This document shows positions 15,004-41,836 of a DNA stretch of 64,000 bases, one piece after another. Numbering within the stretch: the stretch's first letter is position 1; every line of letters begins with the position of its first letter. The stretch lies in NCBI GenBank assembly GCA_041665145.1, contig JBAYJK010000001.1, positions 99,464-163,463 of the forward strand, given 5' to 3'. The notes below the pieces were generated by a model. That model saw only the letters and a program-made list of their open reading frames with translations. It was not told the DNA's origin and did no database searches. The stretch comes from Patescibacteria group bacterium (lineage in GTDB: Bacteria; Patescibacteriota; Microgenomatia; UBA1406). A program made the position numbers and the translations under genes.

Positions 15004-16617
15004 CTACGGGTTTTCGAATATCCAGAACATTTCCTCGGTCTCGATCTTGATTTTCTTCACGCGATCTTCTGGAACTTTCAGTATTTTACCTCCCTCACCA
15101 GAGAAAACATACACACTTTTTTTAGGGCGCATCTCGCTGTTGTAGGGATCGGTGCTGAAAGTGAACTTGTCAAACCCCGTAACTTGGCCGAACCCAAATT
15201 CATCAGGGAGTGTTAATTGTGCTGTCTTCTGATAGTTTTTGGGTGAATAACGGAGGTAAAAGAGTAGATAAATATAGGGTTGTCCGTTGTCTTTGGTAAT
15301 GTAAAAGTGATCAAACTTTGAGTAATTTTCCTTAATATAATCGGCAAGTTCGCGATAGCCCGCTTGAAGCGAACGTACTGCCACGGCTTTTTTAGGATAA
15401 TGTACGAAGAAATAAAAAGACGAAAGCATGGAACCAAGTATAACGAGCACAACAAGAACGTGTGTCATGTAGTGCAACCGCCGCGATTGTAAGAAACTGG
15501 TAATTCCGTAAGCGGAAAGCGGGATCAGGAGAGCAATAAGCGGATAGACTCTGGTGAGCGCATATTCCTGCCATGTAAGAGCCCCATTAAGTGGGGCAAC
15601 GAGAAGCACCACCCCCAGAACGAGAAACTCTTTTTTCCACTTAAAAACCACAAGAGCAATTCCGATGAGAAAACCCACGTACTCCATCAACGGAACGGGG
15701 GAAATATTTGGGTAACCAAACCTGTTATTTACGTCGCCGTGTTGGGTGAGAAACTCCGGGGAAAAGTAGGAGACATAGCGGCGCGAAATCTCCTGAATAC
15801 CAACGAGCAGTTTACTGCTAAATGGGGAAAATCGTTCTTCAATTTTGGCGCTTTCGGTCTTTATGGAAATGTCGGGGTTATTCAGGATAAAAAGGTTTTT
15901 AACCCGTTCAGCTGGCGTCAGTTTCTCTCCGACCACAAATAATCCAATTCCAGCAACAAATACTACCGCACAGATTATCGCCACTGTTTTTGTTTGAAAG
16001 AGTTTGGTTAGAACCTTCTTTTGCCAGGCGAAATAGAGTGCAATCATAAATACAGTGGGAGCGATGATTTTCCCGGTATGATAGGAAAATAAAATAAACG
16101 GAAGAAGACATATCGTTAGCCAGAAGAATTTTAATTTTGCTGTTTTAGCAAAAAGTGTCAGTGTATAGAGCGAAATTACCATAAATGCTGACGCAAGAAC
16201 TGTTTCATGAGCCTGTCGCGCTATTGTGTGTATCCATGGCGAAAATGCAGCGAAGAGTAGCGCAACCGTGGCTGTATATTCACTCTCAAATAATGCTTTC
16301 GTGAACAAATATATTCCCAACACCAAAACCAGCGCCGCTATACCGGCGACAAGGCGGGTGGAGAACTCGTTCAGACCGAAAACTCCCACCGCAGGTACCG
16401 TGAGATATGAATAAAGAGGAAGCTTGTAATCACCAAAGGATTTGAGGCGAAGAGGGAAAATTGAACCGTATTCATCCCGACCGGTTTTCAGAATGGAATA
16501 TGCGTTGTATCCGAAGGCGGCCTCATCCGCTGTAAAACCCGGCGGCGACTTAACTGGTAAGAAATGCCAGATCAGCGTAATGCTAATTGCAAGAGCGATC
16601 AGCAGTTTTTTTATCAT
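15004..16617 (-). CDS. ArnT/PMT-like GT-C glycosyltransferase (GT39/GT83-like)
   Basis: First-loop motif FTADEAAFGYNAYSIL...DYKLPLYSYL (DE catalytic pair, KPPL-like) and a multi-TM topology. Confidence 0.65.
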   Translation of the reverse strand: MIKKLLIALAISITLIWHFLPVKSPPGFTADEAAFGYNAYSILKTGRDEYGSIFPLRLKSFGDYKLPLYSYLTVPAVGVFGLNEFSTRLVAGIAALVLVLGIYLFTKALFESEYTATVALLFAAFSPWIHTIARQAHETVLASAFMVISLYTLTLFAKTAKLKFFWLTICLLPFILFSYHTGKIIAPTVFMIALYFAWQKKVLTKLFQTKTVAIICAVVFVAGIGLFVVGEKLTPAERVKNLFILNNPDISIKTESAKIEERFSPFSSKLLVGIQEISRRYVSYFSPEFLTQHGDVNNRFGYPNISPVPLMEYVGFLIGIALVVFKWKKEFLVLGVVLLVAPLNGALTWQEYALTRVYPLIALLIPLSAYGITSFLQSRRLHYMTHVLVVLVILGSMLSSFYFFVHYPKKAVAVRSLQAGYRELADYIKENYSKFDHFYITKDNGQPYIYLLFYLRYSPKNYQKTAQLTLPDEFGFGQVTGFDKFTFSTDPYNSEMRPKKSVYVFSGEGGKILKVPEDRVKKIKIETEEMFWIFENP

Positions 16618-17441
16618 AAGTTAGTCAAATACCTTGATAATGCCTGCTTAAATCCGACAATAAATTGCCGGTTTTTCCTCTGCGACCATAACAAAACGGG
16701 TAGTTTGACGATGTGTTCAATCAGATTCTTCCCCCTGATATTTTTCCAGATAAAAATAAACTGATTGCGGTTGGCTATGATACCAATCTCTTGCCTTGAG
16801 AAATAAGAAGATATTGTTGTCTCGTGGTGGTGTTCGACGAGAATCGCGGGATAATAGATGTTGTGGAACCCGGCTTTGCGGGCACGAAAGCCCAAATCCA
16901 CATCTTCCCAGTAAAATGGAGAATAGATTTTATCAAAGCCGTCTAGCCTGTTGAACATCTCCCTGCGGACAATACATGAACCACCCTCCGGCCACAAAAC
17001 TTCACAGGTGACTTCGGATTGTATACCCCGGTGGTGAAACAAACCGTTTTCGAAATAACCTTCATTGGCTCCGACAATTTTTCCGTCCCGTTCCTTCTGA
17101 GCGAAGGAAACAGCAAAGAGCAACGTATCATTATCAAATAATGTGAAAGCCTTCTCAAAAGACGAGTCATTAAGCAGGACATCGCTGTTCAGGAGCATTA
17201 CAAACTCTGTTTTACTTTCAGAAACCCCGCGATTGACTGATTGACCAAACCCGCAATTCTTTTTATTAACAATTACCGTTATATTTCGTGACACCTTTTC
17301 AGCCTCGTCAAGTGATACTTCTGGCGAGTCGTTTACTATAATAATTTTGAAATCCGAAAGAAATTTCTTGTTGTGTTTCAGGGTATTCAAGAGTCCGGAA
17401 AGGTCTTTGTAAAAGGGAATAATTACAGTAAGTCGACGCAT
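16614..17441 (-). CDS. GT2-family glycosyltransferase (GT-A fold)
   Basis: IIPFYKD...VNDS...NSDVLL DxD-like motifs and GT2 layout. Confidence 0.7.
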   Translation of the reverse strand: MRRLTVIIPFYKDLSGLLNTLKHNKKFLSDFKIIIVNDSPEVSLDEAEKVSRNITVIVNKKNCGFGQSVNRGVSESKTEFVMLLNSDVLLNDSSFEKAFTLFDNDTLLFAVSFAQKERDGKIVGANEGYFENGLFHHRGIQSEVTCEVLWPEGGSCIVRREMFNRLDGFDKIYSPFYWEDVDLGFRARKAGFHNIYYPAILVEHHHETTISSYFSRQEIGIIANRNQFIFIWKNIRGKNLIEHIVKLPVLLWSQRKNRQFIVGFKQALSRYLTNL

Positions 17442-17446
17442 ATACT

Positions 17447-19290: not shown

Positions 19291-19299
19291 TTTTGCTGA

Positions 19300-20832
19300 T
19301 TAACGTATTTCATAGTAGCCGATGTCCGTATCCACAATGGTAATTCCCCGAAGTTTTACGCTTCTGTCAAGACCCTGGTCATTCATCCACTTAGTTCTTC
19401 GCTCTTCGAAGTCGTCGCGCTCAAGAACAAACCAGCATCTGTTATTCACCCACTGTGTTTGTGGTTGGGGCAGACCTTCGGTTAACTTACGGTGCAGGAA
19501 AAGATAATCATATGTGTAAGGAATTACCGGTGGGGTATAAACTTTGACACAATACTCTTTGTTTGAAGATTTTACTTGGCTGCTTATATAATCAACGACT
19601 TTCTCCATTTTTATTAAACCCTCGGTTTCAGGGACACTTTTGAAACTTTTGACAGTACCGGTAAATCCGGTCAACGTCATTACTACAATAAGCGTGGCCG
19701 TCAAAAACTTTTTCACAACACTGTCCGTAGCACGGTACAGCAATATGGACAAAACAACAAGAAACAGAAGATGTATTCCTTCATAGTAATTTGCCCAAAA
19801 ATTATCTTTATAGAAAGTCGATAAGAAAAAAAGCCCTCCGAGTATAAATACGTAGAACTTCAAAGGTGAATTACCGGAATGTTTTTTGAAGGCAGCTACG
19901 ATAAGGTAGATAAGTAAGACCGATAATAGTGCCAAAATCCACGGGTTTGCCGATAAGCCTTCATAGTAGCCCTTGAATAAAACAATTCTGTCCTGTATTA
20001 CATCCCAATAGGGTTTTGGGTTGTAAAGGTGGGGTTTGATAAAAAATCCGATCAGCGTTTTTGTTTGAAGGAATTCATGCCTTATTTCAAAAAAAATTCT
20101 CATGGAAAATGCGATGAAAAGTCCTAATCCGAATAAAATCCCCGGCCGGAATTTCAATAGTGCAGAACGCAGATCTTTAAACAAGAGTGTGCCCATGAAG
20201 AACAAAGGAATCAAGAACATTCCAAAAGACAACTCAAATTCTGCGACAAGTCCCAAAGAGATGCCGAGTGGAAAAAATACCCACAAAGCGGTATTTTTAC
20301 TTTTTTGCTGGTTGTGGAGAATAACGTAGCTCAGCAAAGCAAAAGCGAGCAAAGCAGGCAGCACCATTATGTTATTTCCTATAAAAACAGAAGTCATTTG
20401 AAAATACGGCGATGTGGCTATCAATAGAGCGACCAATGCAGTAGTTGTTTTGTTAAAATACCGCAACAGGAAATAGGCAAGTACAAGAAATACGCCGAAT
20501 TGCAGTGCGAAGTTAAAGAAATAGAATCCAATCGGCGATCCTTTAAAAAGGAGGAATGGCACGACCAGAACATAGTACCACCATGCTCCATGAAACATTC
20601 CCGTAACACCGGTAGTGGGACCAAGAAACGTTGGTTTTTTGTCCAAGATGATTTTTGCTGCCTGTAGCATATCTCTTCCCTGATCATAGGTGTAGGGGAC
20701 CATATGGTTTAACAGCGGTTGGATACGAAGGGCAATAAAGAAAACGACAGACAGTGAAAATACTACCGGAAACCACCATTTACTAAAAACGGCCCGAAAA
20801 TCGGTTTTGTTATTTTTTTTTGCCATGTACAT
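19300..20832 (-). CDS. Polytopic membrane protein, putative GT-C glycosyltransferase ('YDQGRD' paralog family)
   Basis: Motif YTYDQGRDMLQAAKII...GPTTGVTGMFHGAWWYY and more than 10 TM helices. The ORF-track start 21042 overlaps the upstream gene by 233 nt; M at 20832/20826 (MYMAKK...) is the likely start. Confidence 0.5.
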   Translation of the reverse strand: MYMAKKNNKTDFRAVFSKWWFPVVFSLSVVFFIALRIQPLLNHMVPYTYDQGRDMLQAAKIILDKKPTFLGPTTGVTGMFHGAWWYYVLVVPFLLFKGSPIGFYFFNFALQFGVFLVLAYFLLRYFNKTTTALVALLIATSPYFQMTSVFIGNNIMVLPALLAFALLSYVILHNQQKSKNTALWVFFPLGISLGLVAEFELSFGMFLIPLFFMGTLLFKDLRSALLKFRPGILFGLGLFIAFSMRIFFEIRHEFLQTKTLIGFFIKPHLYNPKPYWDVIQDRIVLFKGYYEGLSANPWILALLSVLLIYLIVAAFKKHSGNSPLKFYVFILGGLFFLSTFYKDNFWANYYEGIHLLFLVVLSILLYRATDSVVKKFLTATLIVVMTLTGFTGTVKSFKSVPETEGLIKMEKVVDYISSQVKSSNKEYCVKVYTPPVIPYTYDYLFLHRKLTEGLPQPQTQWVNNRCWFVLERDDFEERRTKWMNDQGLDRSVKLRGITIVDTDIGYYEIR

Positions 20833-21634: not shown

Positions 21635-21676
21635 TGCAATAATTTTAGCATAAACTGTGCTACAATAACCCTTGAT

Positions 21677-22609
21677 ATGGACTATTCACTGGTTATCCCG
21701 GTATATAATGAACAAGATAACGTTGAGCAGTTATATGAGCGTACCCGGAAAGTAATGGTTACCCTGAAGAAGAAATTTGAGCTTATTTTCATTAATGACG
21801 GATCGCACGATTCAACACAGGAATTATTAACCAAACTACATGCGGCGGATGACAAGGTTAAGGTAATAAATTTCTCCCGAAACTTCGGTCACCAGGTCGC
21901 AGTAACCGCGGGTTTAAAATTTGCCACTGGAAAGAAAATCGCGATTCTTGATGCTGACCTGCAGGATCCTCCGGAAGTGTTACCAACGTTTTTTGCCAAA
22001 CTGGATGAAGGTTTTGATGTTGTTTACGCTATCAGAAAACATCGGAAAGAAAATTTCGTGAAACGTTTTTCATATTTTGTTTTTTATCGTTTGTTGAAAA
22101 CAATTGCAAGTATCTCCATACCGCTTGACAGCGGTGACTTCTGTGTTATGTCGAGTCGGGTTGTATCACTGCTCAACACGTTACCGGAGCGTAACAGATT
22201 TATCCGCGGATTACGCAGTTGGGTTGGTTTTAAACAGGTCGGTGTTGCATACGACCGGGATAACAGGCATGCAGGAAACAGCAAATATACACTCCATAAA
22301 ATGTTTAAGCTTGCCTTTGACGGAATATTTTCATTTTCATATGTTCCTCTGCAACTCTTAACTTTTGCCGGATTTTTGTTTTTTGTGCTTTCAATAGTCG
22401 GGAGCATTATTACCGTGTACGCTAAATTTTTTACCTCTGTCTATATTCCGCGCGGTTTTCCAACAACCATTATCACGATTCTATTCATAGGGGGAATAAA
22501 TATGCTGGCGCTCGGGATTATGGGTGAGTATATCGGCCGGATCTATGATGAAGTGAAGCATCGGTCTCCTTTTATTATTGAATCAACATTAGGTTTAGGT
22601 GAAAAATAA
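21677..22609 (+). CDS. Polyprenyl-phosphate glycosyltransferase, GtrB/ArnC/Dpm1-like GT2 with C-terminal TM pair
   Basis: SLVIPVYNEQDN, FINDGSHDST, ILDADLQDPPE, and two C-terminal TM helices, as in bactoprenol glucosyltransferase GtrB. Confidence 0.8.
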   Translation: MDYSLVIPVYNEQDNVEQLYERTRKVMVTLKKKFELIFINDGSHDSTQELLTKLHAADDKVKVINFSRNFGHQVAVTAGLKFATGKKIAILDADLQDPPEVLPTFFAKLDEGFDVVYAIRKHRKENFVKRFSYFVFYRLLKTIASISIPLDSGDFCVMSSRVVSLLNTLPERNRFIRGLRSWVGFKQVGVAYDRDNRHAGNSKYTLHKMFKLAFDGIFSFSYVPLQLLTFAGFLFFVLSIVGSIITVYAKFFTSVYIPRGFPTTIITILFIGGINMLALGIMGEYIGRIYDEVKHRSPFIIESTLGLGEK

Positions 22610-32251: not shown

Positions 32252-32967
32252 TTGATCACGATAATATCCCGGAGTGTTTCAAACGTATCTTTTATGAAAT
32301 TAACGTTTTTTGTCTCCACATGCCTCCATACAACCGGGATCTCTGTAATTTTACAGCGGAGTTTTTTTGCTATAAACAAAAATTCAAGGTCGAACCCGGC
32401 GCTTACCGAAGAACCTTTAATTTCTTTTTCCGTGCCGAAAACCCGCATTTTTTTGATTATTGTCAGTGCCTTTTCGCGATTGAATATCTTAAATCCGCAC
32501 TGGGTGTCTCGTATGCCATGTAATCCGATTACAATATTCCGAATAATCATAAATCCCCGTGCCATTATTTTTCTGGTAAGCGGTGCTCCTTCTCTTGTTG
32601 AGCTTCTGGATCCGATAACGATATCCGCTCCACGTTCAGCGGAAGCAATAAGCTTGTCTGCTTCTTCAATGGGAGTTGCGAGATCGATGTCAGAAAACAA
32701 CACGTGAGTACCTTTAGCTTGCTTTATGCCTTCCATTACGGTGAAGGCTTTTCCGGAGTGGACCTTTTGAACAAGCTTCAAAAGTGGGAGCTCCTTAAGA
32801 TAATCTTTTTTAATTACATCAATACTTTGATCGGTTGACCCGTCATCGACGATAAGAATTTCACATATTTCCGGGTGGTGTTTAGCATAGTGAACAACCC
32901 GATCAACAACTCCTTTTTGCAGATTCTTTATTTCATTGTAAATCGGAAGTATCAGCGAAACTTTCAT
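32221..32967 (-). CDS. Dpm1-like polyprenyl-phosphate mannose/glucose synthase (soluble GT2)
   Basis: SLILPIYNEIKNL, LIVDDGSTDQS, FSDIDLATPIEE; no TM segments. Confidence 0.75.
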   Translation of the reverse strand: MKVSLILPIYNEIKNLQKGVVDRVVHYAKHHPEICEILIVDDGSTDQSIDVIKKDYLKELPLLKLVQKVHSGKAFTVMEGIKQAKGTHVLFSDIDLATPIEEADKLIASAERGADIVIGSRSSTREGAPLTRKIMARGFMIIRNIVIGLHGIRDTQCGFKIFNREKALTIIKKMRVFGTEKEIKGSSVSAGFDLEFLFIAKKLRCKITEIPVVWRHVETKNVNFIKDTFETLRDIIVIKWNDITKKYD

Positions 32968-34445: not shown

Positions 34446-35571
34446 ACTTCCATATTGTATTATATCTGCAGTCGTTTTGCTGAGTACCTTTATACTATGG
34501 TTGCCGTTTCTTTTACGCGTCAGCGCGATAGGTTCCATACCTACACCCAATCTTTCGTTTCTTGATGTGTATAAACACTGGGACGGTGTGCTTTACGTAG
34601 TTGTTGCCAAGACATTCTATAATATTCAGAGTCCCTTATTGCAAGACAGTCTATTAGCAATTCCCCTCTCACCGCAATATTTTGCCGCACATTTACCCCT
34701 GTATCCGTTTCTGATATGGTTAGGTAGTGTTGTGATCGGCTACTTGAAAAGTATGGTTCTGTGGCCGGTTATATTTGCCTGTCTGTATGGCGGAGCTGTC
34801 TACAATTTCAGTAAAAAATTGAAGCTTACCGATCATCCGCTTATCTTGGCGATTGTGGCTTTGTTTGTTACTCCCAGATTCTTCATCGTCAGATCTGTCG
34901 GCGCACCGGAAACAATATTCTTATTTTTTGTTGTCATGTCACTGTATTTTTTTCTACAGGAAAAGTATTGGTATGCGGGCTTCATGGGAGCTTTGGCATT
35001 CTTAACGAAAAGCCCGGGGATTTTGCTTTTCATCGGATACTCAATGTACTTTGCTGAAGAGCTCATTAAAACAAGAAAAATAAAGCTATCTTGGCTGGGG
35101 ATTTCGCTCATTCCGTTGGCATTCGTTGGTTTATGTACGTTGTATGCGGTACAAATGAATGATTTTCTTGCCTATTTTCATTCCGGAGATAATATCCACC
35201 TGCTGTTTCCACCTTTTCAGGTTTTTAACAGCAAGGCCAATTGGGTGGGTTCAGCCCGATTGGAAGAAATTCTTTTCATTTTTGTCTTCTATATTCTGGC
35301 TCTCATTACCGTGTGGGGAAACAGAAGACTGCGACCGGTTTTCTATACAATGCTGGTTTTTTTCCTCGCAATCATCAGCGTACAGCATATAGATATTGCT
35401 CGGTACAGTTTGCCGCTCTTGCCTTTTGCTCTGGTTATTTTTGAGAAGTTTTTTACTTCAAGAAAATTTTTGATTGCGCTCGTGGTGTTGCTTCCGGCGG
35501 TGTATATGTATGCCTGGAATTTTATGCTGTACAACCAAGCACCGATCACTCTATGGGGTCCGCTTATGTAA
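34432..35571 (+). CDS. Polytopic membrane protein, PIG-V/GT-C-like mannosyltransferase candidate
   Basis: First-loop motif YKHWDGVLYVVVAKTFY and 9-10 TM helices. The start is taken at MVKR (34432) rather than the ORF-track 34342. Confidence 0.4.
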   Translation: MVKRILPYCIISAVVLLSTFILWLPFLLRVSAIGSIPTPNLSFLDVYKHWDGVLYVVVAKTFYNIQSPLLQDSLLAIPLSPQYFAAHLPLYPFLIWLGSVVIGYLKSMVLWPVIFACLYGGAVYNFSKKLKLTDHPLILAIVALFVTPRFFIVRSVGAPETIFLFFVVMSLYFFLQEKYWYAGFMGALAFLTKSPGILLFIGYSMYFAEELIKTRKIKLSWLGISLIPLAFVGLCTLYAVQMNDFLAYFHSGDNIHLLFPPFQVFNSKANWVGSARLEEILFIFVFYILALITVWGNRRLRPVFYTMLVFFLAIISVQHIDIARYSLPLLPFALVIFEKFFTSRKFLIALVVLLPAVYMYAWNFMLYNQAPITLWGPLM

Positions 35572-36696
35572 CTATTTCTTCTTCCAAATGATCTTGTTGT
35601 ACATGAAGTACGAATAGGGAATGATCAAAAAAGCGATGATACCGATTTTGTAGATAATCCATGTAGGAACTCCCAGAAGCACCGTATCGCCAAGAAGAAG
35701 CAAAGCAACATACATTCCGACCGCCTGAATCAGAATATTGCCGGATGATACGATGTTGAAAAGCAGAAGCTTCGGTACGAATGCCGTCAATCCACCGGTA
35801 ATCTGTTTATGTCTGAAGCTCCAAAAATTATTAAGGAAGAAGTTACAGATAATTGCAAATTCCGAACTTATACCGTTTGCCAGGGGCTTGTTGTCAGTTA
35901 TAAATTTGATGAGTACATATGCAATGCTAAAATCTATGCCGAAGCCGATGAAACCAACAATAACAAATTTAACAAAACCGGAGTTCTGTAAAAGATAACC
36001 GAAGATGTTTGTTATAAACTCGCGGGCATTGATTTTTGAAACTCCTTTTTCTCTGTCAACGAACTTCAGAGGAACTTCCTCGATGATGGCGTTTTTCTTG
36101 ATTGCTTTGTCGAGAAGTGCGATCTGGAAAATATATCCGTTATATTTCTCAAGATCGGTCAACATGTCTTTCACGACCCACGCCCGAATCGCGCGGTAAC
36201 CCGAACTCCAATCATGAACCTTGAGATTCATGAATCCGAACCGAATAAACAGATTGGCAGTTATCGAATAAATTTTTCGGTTCAAACCCCAGTTTGCCGG
36301 TATTCCGCCGCCTTTCATGTACCGTGATCCGATAACAAAATCTGCCCCTTCCTCAATTTTTTTTAGCATTACCGGAATGAGCAGCGGATCGTGTGAAAGA
36401 TCAGCATCCATTTCAAACAGGACAAACGGGTTGAGTTTTTCAAGCGCATTTCGGAAACCGTTTACATATGCTTTTCCGAGTCCTTGTTTCTTGCCGATGA
36501 TAAGATGAAGGTTCTTGGTTCCCCCCATAAGTTTCTTTACTATTTTTCCCGTCCCGTCAGGGGAGGAATCATCGACCACCATAATCTGTATATCCCAGTT
36601 ATGCACCGTTCGAATAATTTTATTGAGAGACTCCAGCATTTTTTCTATATTGCCGGCTTCGTTATAGGTCGGTAATACTACAACAGCTTTTTTCAT
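35572..36696 (-). CDS. Dpm1-like polyprenyl-phosphate glycosyltransferase fused to GtrA-like membrane domain
   Basis: VVLPTYNEAGNIEKM, MVVDDSSPDGT, EMDADLSHDP, then a C-terminal 4-TM GtrA-like region. Confidence 0.8.
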   Translation of the reverse strand: MKKAVVVLPTYNEAGNIEKMLESLNKIIRTVHNWDIQIMVVDDSSPDGTGKIVKKLMGGTKNLHLIIGKKQGLGKAYVNGFRNALEKLNPFVLFEMDADLSHDPLLIPVMLKKIEEGADFVIGSRYMKGGGIPANWGLNRKIYSITANLFIRFGFMNLKVHDWSSGYRAIRAWVVKDMLTDLEKYNGYIFQIALLDKAIKKNAIIEEVPLKFVDREKGVSKINAREFITNIFGYLLQNSGFVKFVIVGFIGFGIDFSIAYVLIKFITDNKPLANGISSEFAIICNFFLNNFWSFRHKQITGGLTAFVPKLLLFNIVSSGNILIQAVGMYVALLLLGDTVLLGVPTWIIYKIGIIAFLIIPYSYFMYNKIIWKKK

Positions 36697-37643
36697 AGTG
36701 AGAATCTGTTTTTGAAATAAGTAATAGTATACTGCAATCCCTGTTCAAGTGAAATAACAGGCTGCCATCCGAGAAGTTTATGAACTTTTTCCATATGTGG
36801 GTTTCTCTTCTTCGGGTCGTCCTGAGGAAGTTTTTTGAAAACTATTTCCGAATCCGATGCGGTAAGCTTTTTTATAAGCAGTGCAATTTCATGTATAGTA
36901 TGTTCCATAGGATTACCGAGGTTCACAACCTCTCCGGGAATGGGTTCTTGTCCTGCTGCGACAAGACCCAAAACGAGATCCTCAACATAACAGAAAGATC
37001 TGGTTTGGGAGCCGTCACCATAAATAGTTATCGGTCTGTCGGTGAGTGACTGGACAATAAAATTTGAAATAACACGACCATCCTCTTTTTCCATGTTCGG
37101 ACCGTATGTATTGAAAATACGGACCGTCCGAGTATCCACTCCATACTTGCTGTGGTAGACATAGCATAGAGTTTCTCCCAAGCGCTTTGACTCGTCATAA
37201 CAGGAACGGGGGCCGCGTGTATTTACATTTCCCCAATACGTTTCCTTTTGTGGATGTTCCAAAGGGTCGCCGTATATTTCTGAAGTTGAAGCGTATACGA
37301 GTCGGGCCTTTTTTTTATGGGCAAGCTCAAGCAAGAAGGATGTTCCCATAGAATTTGCTTTCAATGTTTCAAGGGGAAACCGTGCGTACTGTATTGGGGA
37401 GGCCGGCGAGGCGAGGTGGTAAACGAGATCGATCTCAATGTTCGAGAGAGCCTCAAAACTTTTGTGTGACGTGATGTCAGCATTGATGAACAAAAAGCTC
37501 TTGTTGTCTGAAAACTGTTTGATATTTTCCACGGAACTTGTGATGAGATTATCGATGACGGTTACAGAGTGTCCGGTATTCAGCAAGTGCTTGGTAAGGT
37601 TTGATCCTATAAATCCACAGCCACCCGCTATGAGAATATTCAT
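36693..37643 (-). CDS. uxs: UDP-glucuronate decarboxylase (UDP-xylose synthase)
   Basis: GGCGFIGSNL, YASTSEIYGDP, and the near-diagnostic QKETYWGNVNTRGPRSCYDESKR plus GDGSQTRSFCYV, which is a very close match to the UXS signature. Confidence 0.85.
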   Translation of the reverse strand: MNILIAGGCGFIGSNLTKHLLNTGHSVTVIDNLITSSVENIKQFSDNKSFLFINADITSHKSFEALSNIEIDLVYHLASPASPIQYARFPLETLKANSMGTSFLLELAHKKKARLVYASTSEIYGDPLEHPQKETYWGNVNTRGPRSCYDESKRLGETLCYVYHSKYGVDTRTVRIFNTYGPNMEKEDGRVISNFIVQSLTDRPITIYGDGSQTRSFCYVEDLVLGLVAAGQEPIPGEVVNLGNPMEHTIHEIALLIKKLTASDSEIVFKKLPQDDPKKRNPHMEKVHKLLGWQPVISLEQGLQYTITYFKNRFSL

Positions 37644-38965
37644 ATCTCTGAAATAACCGGCTTTCTGCCGATAGAATAATACATAAATCCCGCTTTGGCC
37701 ATTATCGCGGGCTCATAAATATTTCTTCCGTCAAACACGAGAGGAGTTTTCATGAGTTCTTTGACTTTTTTCAGATCCGCCTGCTTAAATTCGTTCCACT
37801 CGGTGAGAATGCACAATGCGTCTGCATTTTGCAATGCTTCATACGGATCTTCTGCGTAATTCAGAGAGTCGCCGAACGTTCTTCGGATATGTTTTGTAGC
37901 TTCAGGATCATATACTGACAATTGGTAGCCATGGTGTAGAAGTGCTTTTATAATCGATACGGAAGGGGCTTCGCGGATGTCATCGGTATTCGGTTTAAAA
38001 CTTAATCCCCAGATAGCAATGTTCTTTCCGGCGATATGTTCATGCACTTTATCTACAAACTGTTCACGTGCCTGTTTATTGATTTTTTCGACCGACTCCA
38101 AGAGCTCCACATCAAGCTTCAACCCTTTGCCGGAATGAGTAAGAGCCTTAACATCTTTCGGGAAACACGCCCCTCCGTAACCAATTCCAGCATACAAAAA
38201 CATGCGCCCTATTCGTTTGTCAAAACCCACCGCATCCAATACGGTTTCAACGTCAGCTCCGGTTTTTTCACAATAGAAAGATATGAGATTTGCAAACGAA
38301 ATCTTAGTAGCCAACATCGAATTTGAGGTATATTTAATTAACTCTGCGCTCGCAAGGTCGGTAACTACCCGCTTTCCGGGTAATGGCTTGTGGAGCTCGA
38401 GAATAAGGTTGATGGCTTTTTGTGAATGCGACCCGATAACTACGCGATCCGGGTTTAAAGTATCATACAGGCCTGTCCCTTCACGGAGAAATTCGGGACA
38501 TGAAGCAACTGCAAATTGCGCATCCTTCGGTTTGATGTCCGTAATAATTTCTTCAACCCGCTTGTTTGTTCCGACAGGAACGGTGCTTTTACAGGAAACG
38601 ACGGTAAAACCATTCTTGAGATTTTGTCCTATTTTCTGAGCAACATCAAAAACTGTGGAAAGATCAGCATCTCCGTTTGTTTTTGAAGGTGTTCCTACGG
38701 TTATAAACACAATTTCAGATTCCTGAATAGCGGGGTCGTAATCCGTCGTGAAAAACAAACGTTCTGCAGCAATATTCTTTTTCAGCATTTCCTGCAACCC
38801 GGGCTCAAAAATGATCGGATCTCCGTTTTTTAGGCGGTTTATCTTGTCTTGTGTATGTCCGACGACCCACACCTTGTTACCGAAGTCGGCGAAGATACAC
38901 GCCGTCACTAGTCCGACGTAACCGTGTCCAACGAATGTTATTGTCATAGGAGTATATGATACCAA
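37640..38965 (-). CDS. ugd: UDP-glucose 6-dehydrogenase
   Basis: N-terminal Rossmann GHGYVGL and the catalytic GGACFPKDV motif; 441 aa. Confidence 0.85.
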   Translation of the reverse strand: MVSYTPMTITFVGHGYVGLVTACIFADFGNKVWVVGHTQDKINRLKNGDPIIFEPGLQEMLKKNIAAERLFFTTDYDPAIQESEIVFITVGTPSKTNGDADLSTVFDVAQKIGQNLKNGFTVVSCKSTVPVGTNKRVEEIITDIKPKDAQFAVASCPEFLREGTGLYDTLNPDRVVIGSHSQKAINLILELHKPLPGKRVVTDLASAELIKYTSNSMLATKISFANLISFYCEKTGADVETVLDAVGFDKRIGRMFLYAGIGYGGACFPKDVKALTHSGKGLKLDVELLESVEKINKQAREQFVDKVHEHIAGKNIAIWGLSFKPNTDDIREAPSVSIIKALLHHGYQLSVYDPEATKHIRRTFGDSLNYAEDPYEALQNADALCILTEWNEFKQADLKKVKELMKTPLVFDGRNIYEPAIMAKAGFMYYSIGRKPVISEI

Positions 38966-38982
38966 ATATGACCGTGTTTTGC

Positions 38983-39804
38983 TTAAATGGCTTTCAGGCC
39001 ATCTTCAAACGAATGCATCGGAATAAAGGCAATTTTATTGCTTACTATTTTACTCATTTTCGGGCGTAACGCTTTACCTGTAAAATACTCGTCATATGTT
39101 GTCTGAGTTATTGGTGAAGCATCCAACCCGTATTTCTGAGCTATCAGTTTTCCCGCTTCATACGGGGAAAGCGAACTGCTTCCGACGAGGTGGAAAAGGG
39201 AAGGTGAATAATGGTTACATAAGTATGCCAAACCATGCGCGATATCATCGATATACGTGGGGGTAAAAATGCTGTCGGTCACCATAGCGAGTGGAACTTT
39301 TTTGGTGAGCAACGCACGAATACGCTGCACAAAATCGGGTTTTCCGCCATATGGGGCGCGATACGGGTAGCTTATCCGTACTATCATTCCCTTGTTTTTC
39401 ACGATTAACTCTCCTTCATGTTTGGTTTGGCCGTAATAGCCGAGGGGATGCGGCGCGCTGTCTTCGTTATAAAACTGCTCTTTTCCGTCGAAAACAAAAT
39501 CGGTTGAGATGTAGATAAACGGTTTTGATTTTCTTTGTGTTTCAGTAAACAAGTTTCTAGTTCCCGTGACATTTATACCGTAGGCAAGTTCTTTATTGTT
39601 TTCCGCTTGATCAACGTTGGTGTAAGCAGCCAAATGAAGAAGGAGATCATATTCTGTATGTTCAAGTGCCTCGTGAACGGAATCGGGCTTTGTTATATCA
39701 CATAAAGCTTGTGTGAGTGGGATAAGCTCAAATTGTTTTCCAAGTATCTCGACAATACGCGAGCCAACAAGACCAGTAGAGCCGGTTATGACAACTCTCT
39801 TCAT
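38983..39804 (-). CDS. rmlD: dTDP-4-dehydrorhamnose reductase-like (RmlD family) 4-ketoreductase
   Basis: ITGSTGLVGS Rossmann motif and ISTDFVFDGK (RmlD STDYVFDG motif). The protein is short at 273 aa. Confidence 0.7.
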   Translation of the reverse strand: MKRVVITGSTGLVGSRIVEILGKQFELIPLTQALCDITKPDSVHEALEHTEYDLLLHLAAYTNVDQAENNKELAYGINVTGTRNLFTETQRKSKPFIYISTDFVFDGKEQFYNEDSAPHPLGYYGQTKHEGELIVKNKGMIVRISYPYRAPYGGKPDFVQRIRALLTKKVPLAMVTDSIFTPTYIDDIAHGLAYLCNHYSPSLFHLVGSSSLSPYEAGKLIAQKYGLDASPITQTTYDEYFTGKALRPKMSKIVSNKIAFIPMHSFEDGLKAI

Positions 39805-40818
39805 TTATGAATGATACTGCTTTTGGTAATATTGCTGATATTCACCGGATTTTATTTCCTTCCACCAATCAGTATTTTTCCCATACCACGCAATGGTTTT
39901 CTGTAGTGCTGTGTCAAAATCAAACTGAGGTTTCCATCCCAATTCACGGTTGATTTTTGACCAATCCATCGCATATCTCCGATCATGGCCGGGGCGGTCT
40001 TTTACGTAATCAATTATGTCTTCGGTTTTTTGCATGAATTTCAAAATTCGTTTGCTCACTTCAATATTCGGAATGTCTTCGGTCAATCCACCTATGAGAT
40101 ATGTTTCACCGAGGGCACCTTTTTTCAGAATCGCATCAATCGCACTGCAGTGATCCTCTACATATAACCAGTCTCGCACATATTGACCATCTCCGTAAAT
40201 GGGTATCCGTTTCCCCTCCAAAATATTTGTAATGGCAAGAGGTATCAGTTTCTCGGGAAACTGATACGGCCCGAAATTATTTGAGCAATTGGAGATTGTT
40301 ATCGGTAAACCGTACGTGGTAGCGTATGCTCGTACCAGATGATCCGATCCTGCTTTTGATGCGGAATAAGGGCTGTGGGGGTTATAGTTAGTTGTCTCGG
40401 AAAATTTATCTTTGGTTCCAAGTTCCAGTGCCCCGAAAACCTCATCTGTTGATATGTGATGAAAGCGTGCGACTTTATGCTCGAGTGCGGACTGTAAAAG
40501 CACAAATGTTCCTTCTACATTAGTTTTAATAAACGGAGAAGGATCCGAAATAGACCGGTCGACATGCGATTCTGCTGCAAAGTGGACGACAATATCAATT
40601 CCCTGCATAACCCGGTTAACAACTTGGGAATCACAAATATCTCCTTTAACAAACGAGTAACGAGGATCATTTTCGACCGAAGCCAAATTTTTCAAATTGC
40701 CTGCATAAGTTAGTGCGTCGAGATTAACAATTTCGTCTTGAGGATATTTTTGTAGCCAATACTGGATGAAATTGCTTCCGATAAATCCCGCACCGCCGGT
40801 AACAAGCAGCTTGCTCAT
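39805..40818 (-). CDS. rmlB: dTDP-glucose 4,6-dehydratase
   Basis: TGGAGFIGSN, HISTDEVFG, YSASKAGSDHLVRAY (catalytic YxxxK). Confidence 0.9.
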   Translation of the reverse strand: MSKLLVTGGAGFIGSNFIQYWLQKYPQDEIVNLDALTYAGNLKNLASVENDPRYSFVKGDICDSQVVNRVMQGIDIVVHFAAESHVDRSISDPSPFIKTNVEGTFVLLQSALEHKVARFHHISTDEVFGALELGTKDKFSETTNYNPHSPYSASKAGSDHLVRAYATTYGLPITISNCSNNFGPYQFPEKLIPLAITNILEGKRIPIYGDGQYVRDWLYVEDHCSAIDAILKKGALGETYLIGGLTEDIPNIEVSKRILKFMQKTEDIIDYVKDRPGHDRRYAMDWSKINRELGWKPQFDFDTALQKTIAWYGKNTDWWKEIKSGEYQQYYQKQYHS

Positions 40819-41576
40819 GAAAATTTGACGTATTCGAGGAACTTAGTTAACCCCGGCGCATTGGCTTTTTTTGCCCAGTACAGGTTTGCGGTTATGAGTG
40901 TCTCGAACGTTCCTGCATCCAACCAATATCCGTCCAACTCAGCAAAATGCAGTTGTTTCTTTTCTATATACAGATTATTGACGTCGGTTATTTCCATTTC
41001 CCCCCGACCTGACGGTTTACAATCCCTAATGACATCAAAAATATGGTTGTCGTACAGGTAAAGACCGGTGACGGCGAAGTCCGAAGGAGGGTCTTGCGGT
41101 TTCTCTATAATTTCAACAATTGTTTTCCCATCGTCGGAAAAACGGGGAACACCGAAGCGTTTCGGATCCGGTACCTTCTTAAGAAAAATGGTTGCCCCGC
41201 CCGTGAAATCCTTCACCGCCTTACTGATGTTCGCATCAGTCGTATTGTCCCCAAGAATAACCGCTATTGAGTCACCGTCAGCAAACTTCTCAGCAAGCGC
41301 TACCGCGTCTGCAATTCCGCCTTTGGGATTCTCCTGAAAAGCATATTCGACGTGTTTCAATCCGAATTCCTCGCCGTTTTTCAAAACATTCAAAAAATGC
41401 CCGGTGTGCGGTCCTGAAGTAACGATAAGTATTTCGTCGACACCTGCCTGAACCAGCGTCTGTATCGGATAATACACCATCGGTTTGTCATATACCGGCA
41501 ACAAATGTTTATTAGTAGCATACGTCAATGGGTATAGCCGGGTGGCAAGACCTCCTGCGCAAATTACACCTTTCAT
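40815..41576 (-). CDS. rmlA: Glucose-1-phosphate thymidylyltransferase
   Basis: MKGVICAGGLATRLYPLTYATNKHLLPV nucleotidyltransferase signature. The internal M at 41576 is used because the ORF-track N-terminal extension (to 41693) overlaps the upstream gene. Confidence 0.85.
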   Translation of the reverse strand: MKGVICAGGLATRLYPLTYATNKHLLPVYDKPMVYYPIQTLVQAGVDEILIVTSGPHTGHFLNVLKNGEEFGLKHVEYAFQENPKGGIADAVALAEKFADGDSIAVILGDNTTDANISKAVKDFTGGATIFLKKVPDPKRFGVPRFSDDGKTIVEIIEKPQDPPSDFAVTGLYLYDNHIFDVIRDCKPSGRGEMEITDVNNLYIEKKQLHFAELDGYWLDAGTFETLITANLYWAKKANAPGLTKFLEYVKFS

Positions 41577-41836
41577 AATAAAGGAAAGAAAATAACTTGT
41601 AATGTTACGAAACCGAGAATTGTTATCAATAGGTATTCTAGCACAACGCTGAAGGTTATTCTCTTGATTCGAACGTGGTGAAGAACCGCCCATATAAAAT
41701 AATATAGTGCAAACAAAGTCCCGACAATCAATCGCTGTTGTGGATCGTGGCGTACAGAAAGTAGTGCAACGCTCACTAATGCGTATACCAATAAAACAAG
41801 GTAGTCGACAGGATACTTTTTAATATCATTCATCAT
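41573..41836 (-). CDS. Small 2-3 TM membrane protein of unknown function
   Basis: 87 aa and hydrophobic; the stop abuts the rmlA start and the start overlaps the upstream stop, so it is operon-embedded. Confidence 0.4.
   Translation of the reverse strand: MMNDIKKYPVDYLVLLVYALVSVALLSVRHDPQQRLIVGTLFALYYFIWAVLHHVRIKRITFSVVLEYLLITILGFVTLQVIFFPLL

Follow-up and report, generated by a model that had tools for sequence, protein, structure and literature searches.

The 64,000-nucleotide stretch of DNA analysed here (the window) harbours a locus that we interpret, with a probability of roughly 0.6, as a lineage-conserved locus for envelope glycan assembly that operates as a much enlarged multi-component transmembrane glycosylation system. 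It comprises 22 tightly packed genes with overlapping or abutting reading frames (15004-41693), which encode nine polytopic GT-C-type glycosyltransferases, three polyprenyl-phosphate-sugar synthases, four cytoplasmic GT2/GT4 enzymes, one Wzx-type flippase and enzymes supplying UDP-glucuronate, UDP-xylose and dTDP-6-deoxyhexose (Table 1). A tenth GT-C (6166) and a fourth synthase (50222) lie outside this core. The products of the cluster most likely assemble or decorate a glycan of the cell surface on the outer side of the membrane. Chemistry of this type is known while the expanded version is undescribed; our literature searches yielded no published account of the locus, in line with the initial annotation, which had called the system not described as such.

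The source is a 919-kb contig of an uncultured, Roizmanbacteria-like member of the Patescibacteria (Candidate Phyla Radiation, CPR), and the cluster takes up about 3% of this tiny (0.9-Mb) genome. All genes named in the initial annotation were found at or near their assigned positions, and its count of about ten GT-Cs in 27 kb resolves into nine within the cluster and the one at 6166, which it had itself placed outside. The GC content (0.39-0.43) is the same as that of the flanks; the locus is a resident one and no 'island' in the sense of horizontal acquisition.

Table 1. Genes of the locus, its left-edge neighbour and its satellites, named in the text by their first position
Feature	Position	Strand	Evidence
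GT-C, PMT_2/GT39-like, 537 aa, ~9 TM, soluble C-terminal domain	15004..16617	-	Pfam PMT_2
Cytoplasmic GT2, 275 aa, 0 TM	16614..17441	-	Glyco_tranf_2_3 68 bits, Glycos_transf_2 62 bits
Cytoplasmic GT4, 357 aa	17447..18520	-	Pfam Glycos_transf_1 92.9 bits
GT2, 257 aa	18517..19290	-	Pfam Glycos_transf_2 44.9 bits
GT-C, 'DQxRD' family, 509 aa from M72	19300..20829	-	hhalign, conserved motif
Cytoplasmic GT2, weakly rhamnosyltransferase-like, 274 aa	20810..21634	-	Pfam Glyco_trans_2_3 37.7 bits
Polyprenyl-phosphate-sugar synthase, GtrB/ArnC/PgfS type, 310 aa, 2 C-terminal TM	21677..22609	+	GtrB 5EKP
Small GT-C, GT87-related, ALG3/PimE-like, 367 aa	22599..23702	+	Invariant residues
YfhO-family GT-C, 797 aa, accessory	23675..26068	-	Pfam YfhO
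Wzx-type (MOP superfamily) flippase, 480 aa, ~11 TM	26044..27486	-	Pfam Polysacc_synt_3
GT-C, PTPS_related/YfhO-like family, 576 aa	27505..29235	+	PF10131 in homologues
GT-C, PMT_2/GT39-like, 535 aa	29170..30777	-	Pfam PMT_2
GT-C, ArnT-like, 493 aa, DWDE...KPPL	30770..32251	-	hhalign, conserved motif
Soluble GT2 like polyprenyl-P-sugar synthase catalytic domain, 248 aa	32221..32967	-	PDB matches
GT-C, 'DQxRD' family, 493 aa (NCBI start), beta-rich C-terminal domain	32964..34445	-	
Probable GT-C, 379 aa from M31, weakest assignment	34432..35571	+	hhalign 86%
Polyprenyl-phosphate-sugar synthase, archaeal DPMS type, 374 aa	35572..36696	-	Pfam + PDB
UDP-glucuronate decarboxylase (UDP-xylose synthase, UXS)	36693..37643	-	Human UXS1 match
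UDP-glucose 6-dehydrogenase (Ugd)	37640..38965	-	UDPG_MGDP_dh domains
RmlD-like dTDP-4-keto-6-deoxyhexose reductase	38983..39804	-	Pfam RmlD_sub_bind 204 bits
dTDP-glucose 4,6-dehydratase (RmlB-like)	39805..40818	-	Pfam + context
Glucose-1-phosphate nucleotidyltransferase (RmlA-like)	40815..41693	-	Pfam NTP_transferase
CPBP/Rce1-like intramembrane protease, left-edge neighbour	14267..15001	+	Pfam Rce1-like 39.8 bits
Satellite pair: DedA/VTT-domain protein (5444-6097), third DQxRD GT-C (6166-7812)	5444..7812	+	
Satellite: second GtrB/ArnC/PgfS-type polyprenyl-P-sugar synthase, 310 aa	50222..51154	-	NCBIfam PgfS

GT-C glycosyltransferases and polyprenyl-phosphate-sugar synthases

Each GT-C candidate contains 7-10 hydrophobic segments in a crude Kyte-Doolittle scan, and conserved acidic motifs (positions conserved at >=90% in orthologue alignments) are placed right after TM1 in the first outer loop. 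The DE...KPPL-type loops described earlier are present as D31-E32 ... K65xP67 in 15004 (conserved), D46-E47 ... Q73-P74-L75 in 29170 (D46-E47 conserved) and D50-E51 ... K80-P81-P82 in 30770 (D48, D50, E51, K80, P81 and P82 conserved). Proteins 15004 and 29170 exceed the Pfam PMT_2 cut-off of 26.1 bits (33.8 and 42.6 bits) and are named 'glycosyltransferase family 39 protein' and 'GT39 family' by NCBI. 30770, named 'Ara4N transferase-like' by JGI, has no Pfam match and is linked to the 15004, 29170, 27505 and 6166 families by hhalign (95.7-96.9% over 315-325 columns). The proposed 'DQxRD' family of three is borne out by blastp (E 1e-12 to 1e-16, 24-26% identity) and by profile comparison (hhalign probability 99.8-100%; 19300 to the 32964 family and 6166 to the 32964 family 100%, 19300 to the 6166 family 99.8%), with the residues D39 Q40 R42 D43 in 6166, the conserved D120 Q121 R123 D124 in 19300 and the form GDQGRD in 32964. 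6166 also reaches 98.9% with the 15004 family, and 19300 gives a sub-threshold PMT_2 score of 17 bits; the 19300 reading frame extends to 21042, M72 being the probable start (orthologues have 486-520 aa).

The YfhO/PTPS-related character assigned to 23675 and 27505 is corroborated by a YfhO match of 23675 (42.1 bits, cut-off 28.5, C-terminal part only; NCBI name 'YfhO family protein') and by PF10131 PTPS_related on nearly all 27505 homologues among the matches listed (120 of 1,345), some of which additionally carry YfhO or PMT_2. The 27505 protein itself remains below the YfhO threshold (25.1 bits) and its family reaches 92-96% with PMT_2-type families; 23675 matches the TM core of this family (97.7%) and, weakly, PgfM2. 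Residues D26, N28, T30, H101, D102 and D109 are invariant in 22599. No PIG-V match was obtained for 34432, and this earlier identification was dropped; PMT_2 is sub-threshold here (24.0 bits), an NCBIfam 'cell surface glycopolymer formation' family is far under its cut-off (E 6.6e-8), and in hhalign the protein aligns with the 30770 family (300 columns). Pfam PMT (PF02366) matches none of the window proteins. All GT-C families are linked to one another by hhalign (84-100%), while a Wzx control stays at <=4%. Structure models of two of the ten proteins and the profile evidence establish GT-C fold or homology; several individual calls were reached by profile-profile transitivity and are best termed probable, among them 34432 and the N-terminal core of 23675 (through 27505). 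Identity between paralogues does not exceed 26%, against up to 62% between orthologues, indicating that the duplications are old and the functions probably distinct.

Three of the four polyprenyl-phosphate-sugar synthases originally proposed were confirmed at the level of predicted function. 21677 aligns over its full length with GtrB 5EKP (2e-82; ArnC 1.5e-44) and scores 261 bits with NCBIfam PgfS, and 50222, 42% identical to it, reaches 277 bits with PgfS and 178 bits with ArnC, also full length. In 35572 a GT2 catalytic domain is fused to a four-helix GtrA/DPMS TM domain (Glycos_transf_2 91.7 bits, GtrA_DPMS_TM 53.2 bits), and the match to P. furiosus DPMS 5MLZ (5.5e-33, residues 3-353) includes the TM domain. 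For 32221 this role is plausible, judged from the catalytic domain only: the best PDB matches are DPMS (6e-15), ArnC (9e-13) and GtrB (9e-9), and NCBIfam PgfS, ArnC, AglJ and PpgS are each under cut-off.

Cytoplasmic enzymes, flippase and conservation in relatives

The four cytoplasmic GT2/GT4 enzymes expected between 16614 and 21634 all have Pfam matches. The GT4 resembles PimA/MshA-type enzymes, 18517 shows a weak N-terminal match to PpgS, and 20810 scores 37.6 bits with the rhamnosyltransferase model TIGR01556, under its cut-off. The flippase call stands with 176.7 bits for Polysacc_synt_3 (Polysacc_synt 78.6, MurJ only 27.3). The UDP-xylose and dTDP-deoxyhexose genes were likewise recovered: 36693 matches human UXS1 structures (2e-103, 349 bits; next-best family 143 bits), 37640 carries all three UDPG_MGDP_dh domains (199, 116 and 125 bits), 38983 scores 188 bits with TIGR01214 (cut-off 224), and 39805 (GDP_Man_Dehyd 291 bits, Epimerase 228 bits) is taken for RmlB because it is placed between RmlA and RmlD. 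In 40815 the NTP_transferase match (181.9 bits) begins at residue 41 and an alternative gene call has 253 aa, so that the true start may lie downstream. RmlC is missing from the window, which makes the dTDP product uncertain, and no GDP-mannose genes occur in it. Neither the window nor 80 related loci contain a priming phosphoglycosyltransferase (WbaP/WecA type), Wzy polymerase, ligase or LCP catalytic domain, so that the pathway, as it presents itself, is incomplete in its cytoplasmic half.

Gene order is strongly conserved over these 80 species-level loci from different Roizmanbacteria/Microgenomates (30-68% identity), which speaks against a chance juxtaposition. Sub-modules kept are 32964-32221-30770, 29170/21677 and Ugd-UXS-35572, the last again in L034, L054, L070 and L081. 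The 32221 orthologue (52-64% identity) directly follows the 30770 orthologue in every locus having it; 16614 and 17447 are kept in nearly all loci, 20810 in most, an 18517 homologue in 72 and the 15004 orthologue in 55, adjoined in 51 by a homologue of the 14267 protease. Forty full-length loci served for component counts: 32 contain Wzx and 38 have 4-5 cytoplasmic GTs. 23675 is absent from all 80 (no tblastn match). The label 'GtrC-position' for 22599 is loose: the gene follows a GtrB-like gene here and in only four relatives (L004, L027, L044, L045). Several relatives have 6166-type paralogues within the locus, further GT-C families also occur there, and two frequent polytopic families have no assignable fold. 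The median for the related loci is six GT-C-like genes in 21 kb. The GT-C density is normal for the lineage and unusual for bacteria in general; the 'unusual copy number' noted initially is above the 1-3 pairs listed for other systems (PMC8035078).

Possible function of the locus

The reading as lipid-carrier-dependent extracytoplasmic glycosylation is supported by these data, and the architecture fits the definition published for multi-component systems of transmembrane glycosylation (PMC8035078). In the envelope glycan assembly that we favour, the four cytoplasmic GTs would draw on UDP- and dTDP-sugars, three of them of local make (UDP-GlcA, UDP-Xyl and dTDP-6-deoxyhexose), to put together a lipid-linked oligosaccharide, and the Wzx-type flippase would bring it to the outer face. 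Alongside this route, three to four GT-A enzymes would load polyprenyl phosphate with single sugars, which nine to ten GT-Cs of at least four ancient families would transfer outside the membrane to the exported glycan and possibly also to surface proteins. 35572 may carry xylose or glucuronate as it is operon-linked to Ugd/UXS, a connection suggested by gene order only. The carrier lipid is perhaps recycled by the DedA-type protein 5444 (VTT_dom 72.9 bits).

It is conceivable, albeit doubtful, that proteins are the main acceptors and that Ser/Thr/Pro-rich linkers of membrane-anchored proteins undergo general extracytoplasmic O-glycosylation, as by streptococcal GtrB+PgtC2 or Pgf or by actinobacterial PMT. 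The locus is dominated by PMT_2-type GT-Cs, PgfS gives the best scores for 21677 and 50222, and 23675 resembles PgfM2, if weakly. TP/ST-rich segments by a TM helix are present in four proteins encoded just downstream, namely 42741 (LTD; 'TPTPTPTTTPTRIPTQTPTTTP'), 46813, 48321 (LytR_C) and 51285 (a membrane-anchored cyclophilin); orthologues show such linkers again (L009, L022, L019, L049), and in streptococci it is precisely regions of this type that are glycosylated in PrsA (a foldase), LytR, PBP1a and PknB (PMC12041528). However, secreted proteins commonly have TP-rich linkers, whether or not these are glycosylated, and several 48321 orthologues lack them; protein glycosylation would also leave unexplained why Wzx and the four cytoplasmic GTs, signs of a lipid-linked oligosaccharide, are conserved, and PF02366 and GDP-mannose genes are missing from the window. 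An extracellular polymerisation following mycobacterial arabinogalactan/lipomannan logic seems rather unlikely. Here, a small lipid- or wall-anchored primer would be flipped and then lengthened one step at a time by many linkage-specific GT-Cs that draw on polyprenyl-P-sugars, among them a new polyprenyl-P-xylose donor; we know of no established donor of this kind in bacteria. About ten GT-Cs face four synthases, so that each donor must serve several enzymes; the GT-C families are ancient and non-redundant, relatives add further ones, 22599 is GT87/PimE-like, the core GT4 is of PimA/MshA-like type, and the order Ugd-UXS-DPMS-like synthase is kept. Many acceptors would explain the GT-C number equally well, however, and the window contains neither DPA-pathway homologues (UbiA-type, DprE) nor any for the supply of GDP-Man.

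A conventional locus for exopolysaccharide or capsule of the Wzx/Wzy type, in which some polytopic proteins would be polymerases or ligases acting on polyprenyl-diphosphate-linked donors, is in our view improbable. The combination of Wzx with four cytoplasmic GTs and nucleotide-sugar genes is what such loci typically show, and the two families of relatives lacking an assignable fold could be accommodated, but the locus includes, as integral and conserved parts, three to four synthases dedicated to polyprenyl-monophosphate-sugars, Pfam gives no match for Wzy_C/O-antigen ligase, a chain-length regulator or a priming transferase, and the WWDYG-type oligosaccharyltransferase motif is missing from the conserved DQxRD-family columns. 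That there is no system at all, only transporters or unrelated membrane proteins clustered by chance, might be suspected from the NCBI label 'hypothetical protein' on five of the ten GT-C candidates and the lack of a Pfam match for four; this is refuted by the order kept over 80 loci, the overlapping reading frames and the structure and profile evidence for GT-C.

Comparison with known systems

Closest to the proposed glycan assembly locus are the Gram-positive three-component systems of B. subtilis, Listeria, L. lactis (Csd) and S. pyogenes (GacI-K-L), which combine a CsbB/GtrB-type synthase, a GtcA/GtrA or Wzx-type flippase and a YfhO/PMT_2-type GT-C, with 1-3 usually scattered synthase/GT-C pairs in each organism listed (PMC8035078). 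The same classes stand side by side here, namely membrane-linked GT-A synthases, a Wzx-type flippase, a GtrA-like TM domain and GT-Cs of the PMT_2 and YfhO types whose first outer loop carries the conserved acidic motif; next to them is a dTDP-sugar pathway of the rhamnose type, which is also the case in the streptococcal Gac locus. In contrast, one conserved locus in a 0.9-Mb genome holds 9-10 GT-Cs that outnumber the 3-4 synthases, extra families occur (DQxRD, GT87-like, PTPS_related), a DPMS-type synthase is tied to UXS, and teichoic-acid or ABC-exported rhamnan genes were not seen. The O-glycosylation of streptococcal proteins by Pgf (PgfS, PgfM1, PgfE, PgfM2) or GtrB+PgtC2 (PMC5856776; PMC12041528) shares the GtrB/PgfS-type synthases, the use of one synthase for more than one GT-C and candidate acceptors with membrane-proximal linkers (foldase, LytR_C) adjoining the locus. 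The PgfS scores of 261-277 bits against an equivalog cut-off of 500 nevertheless indicate that 21677 and 50222 are not Pgf orthologues, and the present locus differs in lacking a PgfE-type epimerase and in having many more GT-Cs, Wzx and cytoplasmic GTs.

The Arn pathway of Gram-negative bacteria (Ugd, ArnA, ArnB, ArnC, ArnD, ArnE/F, ArnT) follows a similar operon logic, leading from Ugd via a UDP-GlcA decarboxylase and a polyprenyl-P-sugar synthase to an ArnT-like GT-C, and the best matches in structure or sequence include ArnC and ArnT. As decarboxylase, the locus has an ordinary UXS (2e-103 to UXS1 versus 1e-26 to ArnA), an ArnB-type aminotransferase, formyltransferase and deformylase are absent, and the pentose, if lipid-linked, would be xylose rather than Ara4N; lipid A is not expected in CPR bacteria. 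To our knowledge, the mycobacterial/corynebacterial set (EmbA/B/C, AftA-D, PimE and MptA/B, acting on decaprenyl-P-arabinose and polyprenyl-P-mannose) is the sole well-known bacterial case of comparable GT-C number and local density. There is no orthology at the sequence level, the DPA pathway and GDP-mannose genes are absent from the window, the genome is five times smaller, and phylum and envelope differ. What the two have in common is a GT87/PimE-like member and, as it would appear, step-wise extracytoplasmic assembly by linkage-specific GT-Cs from a few shared lipid-linked donors.

Genomic setting and gene order

The initial annotation had described the region from 15004 to 41693 as a 27-kb envelope glycosylation island, an observation that is borne out, with minor corrections, by Pfam, fold, profile and synteny evidence. 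The locus measures 26.7 kb, corresponding to ~2.9% of the source contig. The product of the UXS gene (36693) is identical on a JGI metagenome contig and on a contig assembled independently from a sequencing run; a further contig and two MAG records at NCBI contain other proteins of the region. As its proteins recur on separately assembled contigs, the region is reproducibly assembled. Homologues stem overwhelmingly from Candidatus Roizmanbacteria and other Microgenomates, the flanking genes are of the housekeeping type (PBP, Lon, AddA-like helicase-nuclease, RF2, FtsEX, tRNAs), and GC content is 0.39-0.43 inside the region versus 0.40-0.44 outside. The locus is a resident chromosomal one in a CPR bacterium with a genome of ~0.9 Mb; acquisition by horizontal transfer, as the term genomic island would suggest, was rejected in view of uniform GC content and conservation within the lineage.

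Neighbours among the 22 tightly packed genes overlap or lie a few bases apart, and the genes appear to be grouped into five or six transcription units that alternate in strand (see table). Scanning for consensus promoters and terminators yielded hits at chance level (45 versus 45.2 and 23 versus 18.6 in shuffled sequence) and is silent on operon structure. The starts of three long open reading frames, 19300 (to 21042), 32964 (to 34550) and 34342, overlap neighbouring genes and all three are probably shorter than called, with starts near 20829 and 34445 indicated by orthologue lengths and the NCBI gene call. For the last of the three GT-C candidates we adopt the start of the initial annotation, 34432.

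Outside the locus, a gene for a DedA/VTT protein lies immediately upstream of the third DQxRD GT-C gene (6166). Near the other end of the window, a copper-type P-type ATPase gene directly precedes one for an unusual 452-aa fusion of heavy-metal-associated, DsbD_2 membrane and C-terminal cupredoxin-like domains, a fusion unrelated to the glycosylation locus. Two open reading frames of 179 and 342 aa have no match in Pfam and adjoin a tRNA-Pro gene and a gene for a DUF2130 protein. Four others of 150-172 aa each lie inside a longer, well-supported gene on the opposite strand and are probably not genes.

Transcription units of the locus and other features of the window (gene handles in brackets are start coordinates)
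Feature	Coordinates	Strand	Content or remark
DedA/VTT protein	5444-6097	+	
Third DQxRD GT-C (6166)	6166-7812	+	
CPBP/Rce1-like intramembrane protease	14267-15001	+	
Unit 1	21634 to 15004	-	GT2 (20810), DQxRD GT-C (19300), GT2 (18517), GT4 (17447), GT2 (16614), PMT_2 GT-C (15004)
Unit 2		+	GtrB-type synthase (21677), small GT-C (22599)
Unit 3		-	Wzx (26044), YfhO protein (23675)
YfhO-family protein (23675)	23675-26068	-	797 aa
27505		+	stands alone
Unit 4		-	DQxRD GT-C (32964), soluble synthase-like GT2 (32221), ArnT-like GT-C (30770), PMT_2 GT-C (29170)
34432		+	stands alone
Unit 5	41693 to 35572	-	RmlA, RmlB, RmlD-like, Ugd, UXS, DPMS-type synthase
UXS (36693)	36693-37643	-	
RmlA, RmlB, RmlD-like reductase	38983-41693	-	
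Lamin-tail-domain protein (42741)	42741-43952	-	membrane-anchored, Thr/Ser/Pro-rich linker; candidate acceptor
Small protein (46813)	46813-47277	-	membrane-anchored, Thr/Ser/Pro-rich linker; candidate acceptor
LytR_C protein (48321)	48321-49790	-	membrane-anchored, Thr/Ser/Pro-rich linker; candidate acceptor
Cyclophilin (51285)	51285-52010	-	membrane-anchored, Thr/Ser/Pro-rich linker; candidate acceptor
ORF, 179 aa	54969-55508	-	
ORF, 342 aa	56368-57396	+	
Copper-type P-type ATPase	59330-61615		
Fusion protein, 452 aa	61608-62966	+	
ORFs of 150-172 aa	32189-32707	+	probably not a gene
	46303-46782	+	probably not a gene
	57448-57906	-	probably not a gene
	60919-61371	-	probably not a gene

Assignment of the polytopic proteins to the GT-C superfamily

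Pfam recognized three of the polytopic proteins above threshold: 15004 (33.8 bits) and 29170 (42.6 bits) as PMT_2, and 23675 as YfhO (PF09586; 42.1 bits, cut-off 28.5), the latter alignment covering only positions 742-834, i.e. the C-terminal part, of the 835-position profile. The matches of 19300, 34432 and 27505 all remained below threshold (YfhO with 25.1 bits versus 28.5 for 27505), and 6166, 22599, 30770 and 32964 gave zero matches even at E up to 10. NCBIfam offered no useful match for any GT-C, and searching the PDB with sequence profiles alone brought no meaningful match for the DQxRD and 22599 families. Because these searches gave nothing, structure was used for the two families lacking a match. 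The predicted structure of 22599 (pLDDT 95.0, pTM 0.93) has exclusively GT-C proteins among its 16 best structural matches, with scores of 15.2 for ALG3, 14.0 for ALG6, 13.9 for PIG-U, 12.4 for PIG-M, 12.3 for PimE and 10.7 for ArnT; in Foldseek, PimE came out on top, not significantly. In the 22599 family, ten of the 67 members match Pfam GT87 (PF09594, best E 4.6e-9), and all 22599 homologues carry PF26314, a model not contained in the Pfam copy used.

Profiles of orthologue alignments built from 80 related loci were compared with hhalign. The families of 15004, 29170, 30770, 6166, 19300, 32964 and 27505 are joined with 84-100% probability over 200-460 columns, a few single pairs being weaker (e.g. 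27% for 19300 versus 30770), while the Wzx family, which served as polytopic negative control, never exceeded 4%. The 34432 family is linked to 30770 at 86% over 300 columns, and 23675 as a single sequence to the transmembrane core of the 27505 family at 97.7%. Almost all 27505 homologues match Pfam PTPS_related, a family of the GT-C clan. GT-C catalytic residues are located directly after the first transmembrane helix, and acidic residues are kept at exactly this place in each family (DE, DQxRD, D26 or WD). The two modelled proteins, 22599 and 32964, match the superfamily in its conserved N-terminal transmembrane module with a long first outer loop and are superposable on ArnT/PMT/ALG/OST. 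The initial annotation had counted about ten GT-C proteins within the region. We count nine: the fold identifies two (22599 and 32964), curated Pfam thresholds identify three, and the remaining four rest on profile links, 34432 being the weakest. The tenth, 6166, is situated outside. As to individual families, PMT_2 matches 15004 and 29170, and YfhO matches the C-terminal part of 23675. The designation of 34432 as PIG-V-like had to be dropped, with no match to PF04188 even at E up to 10 and PMT_2 at 24.0 bits as its only hit.

None of the window proteins matches Pfam PMT (PF02366), PMT_2 (PF13231) being the only related model found, and a gene of the GDP-mannose pathway is lacking in the window. 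The proteins are therefore not assigned to GT39/PMT, and the 'GT39 family' names given by NCBI are family-level labels only. An oligosaccharyltransferase function of the DQxRD family was set aside since there is no WWDYG-like motif among the conserved columns. In NCBI records, three of the ten GT-Cs are named as glycosyltransferases and five as hypothetical proteins. With half of these enzymes annotated as hypothetical, CAZyme surveys of CPR genomes undercount GT-Cs.

Conservation in related loci

In 185,579 species-representative genomes, pattern scanning identified 447 with a relative of 22599, and the best 80 of these 447 loci, nearly all from Roizmanbacteria/Microgenomates by record title, were compared with the window. 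Many records with a Roizmanbacteria-type locus (L007, L009, L010, L016 and others) bear the title 'uncultured Gammaproteobacteria bacterium', which is clearly a placeholder or a wrong label. As expected for more than a chance juxtaposition, gene order is conserved across the 80 loci, and tblastn with the window proteins revealed a recurrent CPBP protease > 15004 < 16614 < 17447 < 18517 < (19300 <) 22599 > 20810 < 26044 < 27505 > 29170 < (21677 >) 30770 < 32221 < 32964 arrangement. Loci L004 and L027 are near-colinear with the window at 33-68% identity. The 40 loci for which the full 21 kb are available contain a median of 6 GT-C-like open reading frames (range 2-8), Wzx is present in 32 of them and four or five cytoplasmic glycosyltransferases in 38. 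The 32964-32221-30770 trio is kept in every locus extending that far, and in L034, L054, L070 and L081 the opposite edge of the locus again carries the Ugd-UXS-35572 trio. The CPBP/Rce1-like intramembrane protease gene, divergent to the first GT-C gene, is the conserved left neighbour in 51 of the 80 loci.

Within the window, paralogues share at most 26% identity, compared to 30-62% for orthologues. Paralogues are thus more diverged than orthologues, so the duplications are older than the radiation of the group, and redundancy among the copies is unlikely. Additional GT-C-like families occur in the loci of the relatives, one with a PMT/PMT_2 match of 73 bits and three linked at 93% or more by hhalign. 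Two polytopic families of ~556 and 570 aa are encoded within 28 and 23 of the 80 loci, respectively (e.g. L069:11872-13542 (+) and L015:16883-18595 (+)); they have no Pfam match and no confident link to a GT-C profile (best 70%) and are absent from the window. For 23675 no counterpart was found in any of the 80 loci; there, the gene after the 22599 orthologue is usually either a GT2 gene of the 20810 type or the Wzx gene itself. 23675 appears to be an accessory, strain- or species-specific insertion into a conserved locus.

Sugar donors, possible acceptors and relation to known systems

The synthases 21677 and 50222 share 42% identity and align with PgfS at 261 and 277 bits, respectively. With two transmembrane helices, 21677 matches Synechocystis GtrB (5EKP) end-to-end at 2e-82 and ArnC at 1.5e-44. 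Residues 3-353 of 35572, including the transmembrane domain, align with Pyrococcus dolichol-P-mannose synthase (DPMS, 5MLZ; 5.5e-33), and the protein carries a fused Pfam GtrA_DPMS_TM domain (53.2 bits). By their sequences, these three are predicted membrane-linked GT-A enzymes producing polyprenyl(C55)-P-sugars. 32221 consists of the catalytic domain only, its best solved relatives all being polyprenyl-P-sugar synthases. By homology, 26044 is a Wzx-type MOP flippase (Polysacc_synt_3, 176.7 bits); a stand-alone GtrA was found neither in the window nor among recurrent extra open reading frames of the 80 loci. 36693 is a UDP-xylose synthase (2e-103 with human UXS1, 349 bits versus ~97 for ArnA and also far above RmlB) and its gene adjoins ugd. 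RmlA, RmlB and an RmlD-like reductase are encoded as well, the latter scoring below the equivalog cut-off (188 versus 224 bits). An RmlC epimerase is found neither among window open reading frames of at least 150 aa (Pfam) nor among the recurrent extra ones of the 80 loci, and the window thus lacks a full RmlABCD set for dTDP-L-rhamnose. In the absence of RmlC the dTDP-sugar may be a 6-deoxyhexose other than L-rhamnose.

In multi-component transmembrane glycosylation, a GT-A enzyme forms the C55-P-sugar, a flippase of the GtrA or Wzx type is required, and a GT-C that has an acidic motif in one of its outer loops transfers the sugar to an envelope polymer (PMC8035078). GT-C-fold transferases with a DxD-like acidic motif in the extracellular loop are present here, and lipid-carrier-dependent extracytoplasmic glycosylation, as originally proposed, is supported as far as computation reaches. 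Wzx and four cytoplasmic glycosyltransferases imply a lipid-linked oligosaccharide. We consider it likely (probability about 0.6) that a glycan is exported by Wzx and that GT-Cs fed from a few lipid-linked monosaccharides would then lengthen and decorate it on the outer side of the membrane. DedA proteins are implicated in undecaprenyl-phosphate recycling, and by analogy the DedA/VTT protein encoded next to the third DQxRD gene may serve as a partner that recycles the carrier lipid. Neither a priming phosphoglycosyltransferase nor a polymerase, ligase or LCP catalytic domain is encoded in the window or by recurrent genes of the 80 loci; such genes may reside elsewhere in the genome.

A plain Wzx/Wzy locus is improbable, given that monophosphate-sugar synthases are integral to the locus and that Wzx is present but a priming enzyme, Wzy, chain-length regulator or ligase is missing in the scanned open reading frames: Bac_transf, Glycos_transf_4, Wzy_C and Wzz matched neither any window open reading frame of at least 150 aa nor the frequent extra ones of the 80 loci. 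Genes for teichoic acids, LtaS or ABC-type polymer export are likewise lacking in the window. A less likely function, whether alternative or additional, is O-glycosylation of proteins. It is supported by the four downstream proteins listed as candidate acceptors, which have Thr/Ser/Pro-rich segments beside a transmembrane helix; the linker 'TPTPTPTTTPTRIPTQTPTTTP', for example, joins two lamin-tail domains. Such linkers are common anyway, however, and some orthologues lack them. In streptococci, a GtrB-type synthase acts with a GT-C to O-glycosylate regions of this kind in PrsA, LytR, PBP1a and PknB (PMC12041528), and comparable O-glycosylation is brought about by the streptococcal Pgf system (PMC5856776). 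The LytR_C protein and the cyclophilin next to the locus recall the streptococcal glycoproteins LytR and PrsA.

Assembly taking place mostly outside the membrane, in mycobacterial style, appears unlikely. It is likewise a speculative proposition, to which we assign a low likelihood, that Roizmanbacteria/Microgenomates build a surface glycoconjugate in this way with ~10 linkage-specific GT-Cs of partly unannotated families and a few lipid-linked monosaccharides including polyprenyl-phosphate-xylose (or -glucuronate), as a CPR counterpart of mycobacterial arabinogalactan/lipomannan assembly that would probably be central to host-cell attachment. We know of no bacterium for which a polyprenyl-phosphate-xylose (or -glucuronate) donor has been established.

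CPR/Patescibacteria are ultra-small, mostly uncultured episymbionts whose surfaces mediate host contact, and to our knowledge the chemistry of CPR envelopes is almost uncharted. A conserved locus that occupies ~3% of a 0.9-Mb genome, with nine to ten ancient, non-redundant GT-Cs and a distribution over hundreds of species, implies that a complex surface glycan or glycoproteome is under strong selection. Its conserved catalytic residues, along with the candidate donors and possible acceptor proteins, can serve as targets in glycomics of enrichments, in assays of heterologously expressed enzymes and in cell sorting with lectins or antibodies. Open-access papers and bioRxiv preprints on GT-Cs or protein glycosylation in CPR/Patescibacteria/Roizmanbacteria yielded no description of the locus; multiple Dol-P-Man-synthase-like genes are mentioned in passing for Peregrinibacteria (PMC4736985), as are GT87 and DPM synthases for a saccharibacterium (PMC6031116).

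The kind of system is already known, and what is new is its scale and conservation in a reduced CPR genome, the ratio of GT-Cs to synthases, the UXS-linked synthase and two families without any match to the Pfam copy used among their members in the window. In its logic the Ugd-UXS-synthase arrangement mirrors the Arn pathway, and gene order suggests a possible polyprenyl-P-xylose or -glucuronate donor. The functions of ArnA, ArnB and ArnD are lacking: the window contains no DegT/ArnB-type aminotransferase, 1479 being a class-V NifS/IscS-like protein, and the locus is therefore not an Arn system. The multi-component systems listed in review comprise at most three synthase/GT-C pairs per organism (PMC8035078), whereas one conserved locus here combines three or four synthases with nine or ten GT-Cs.
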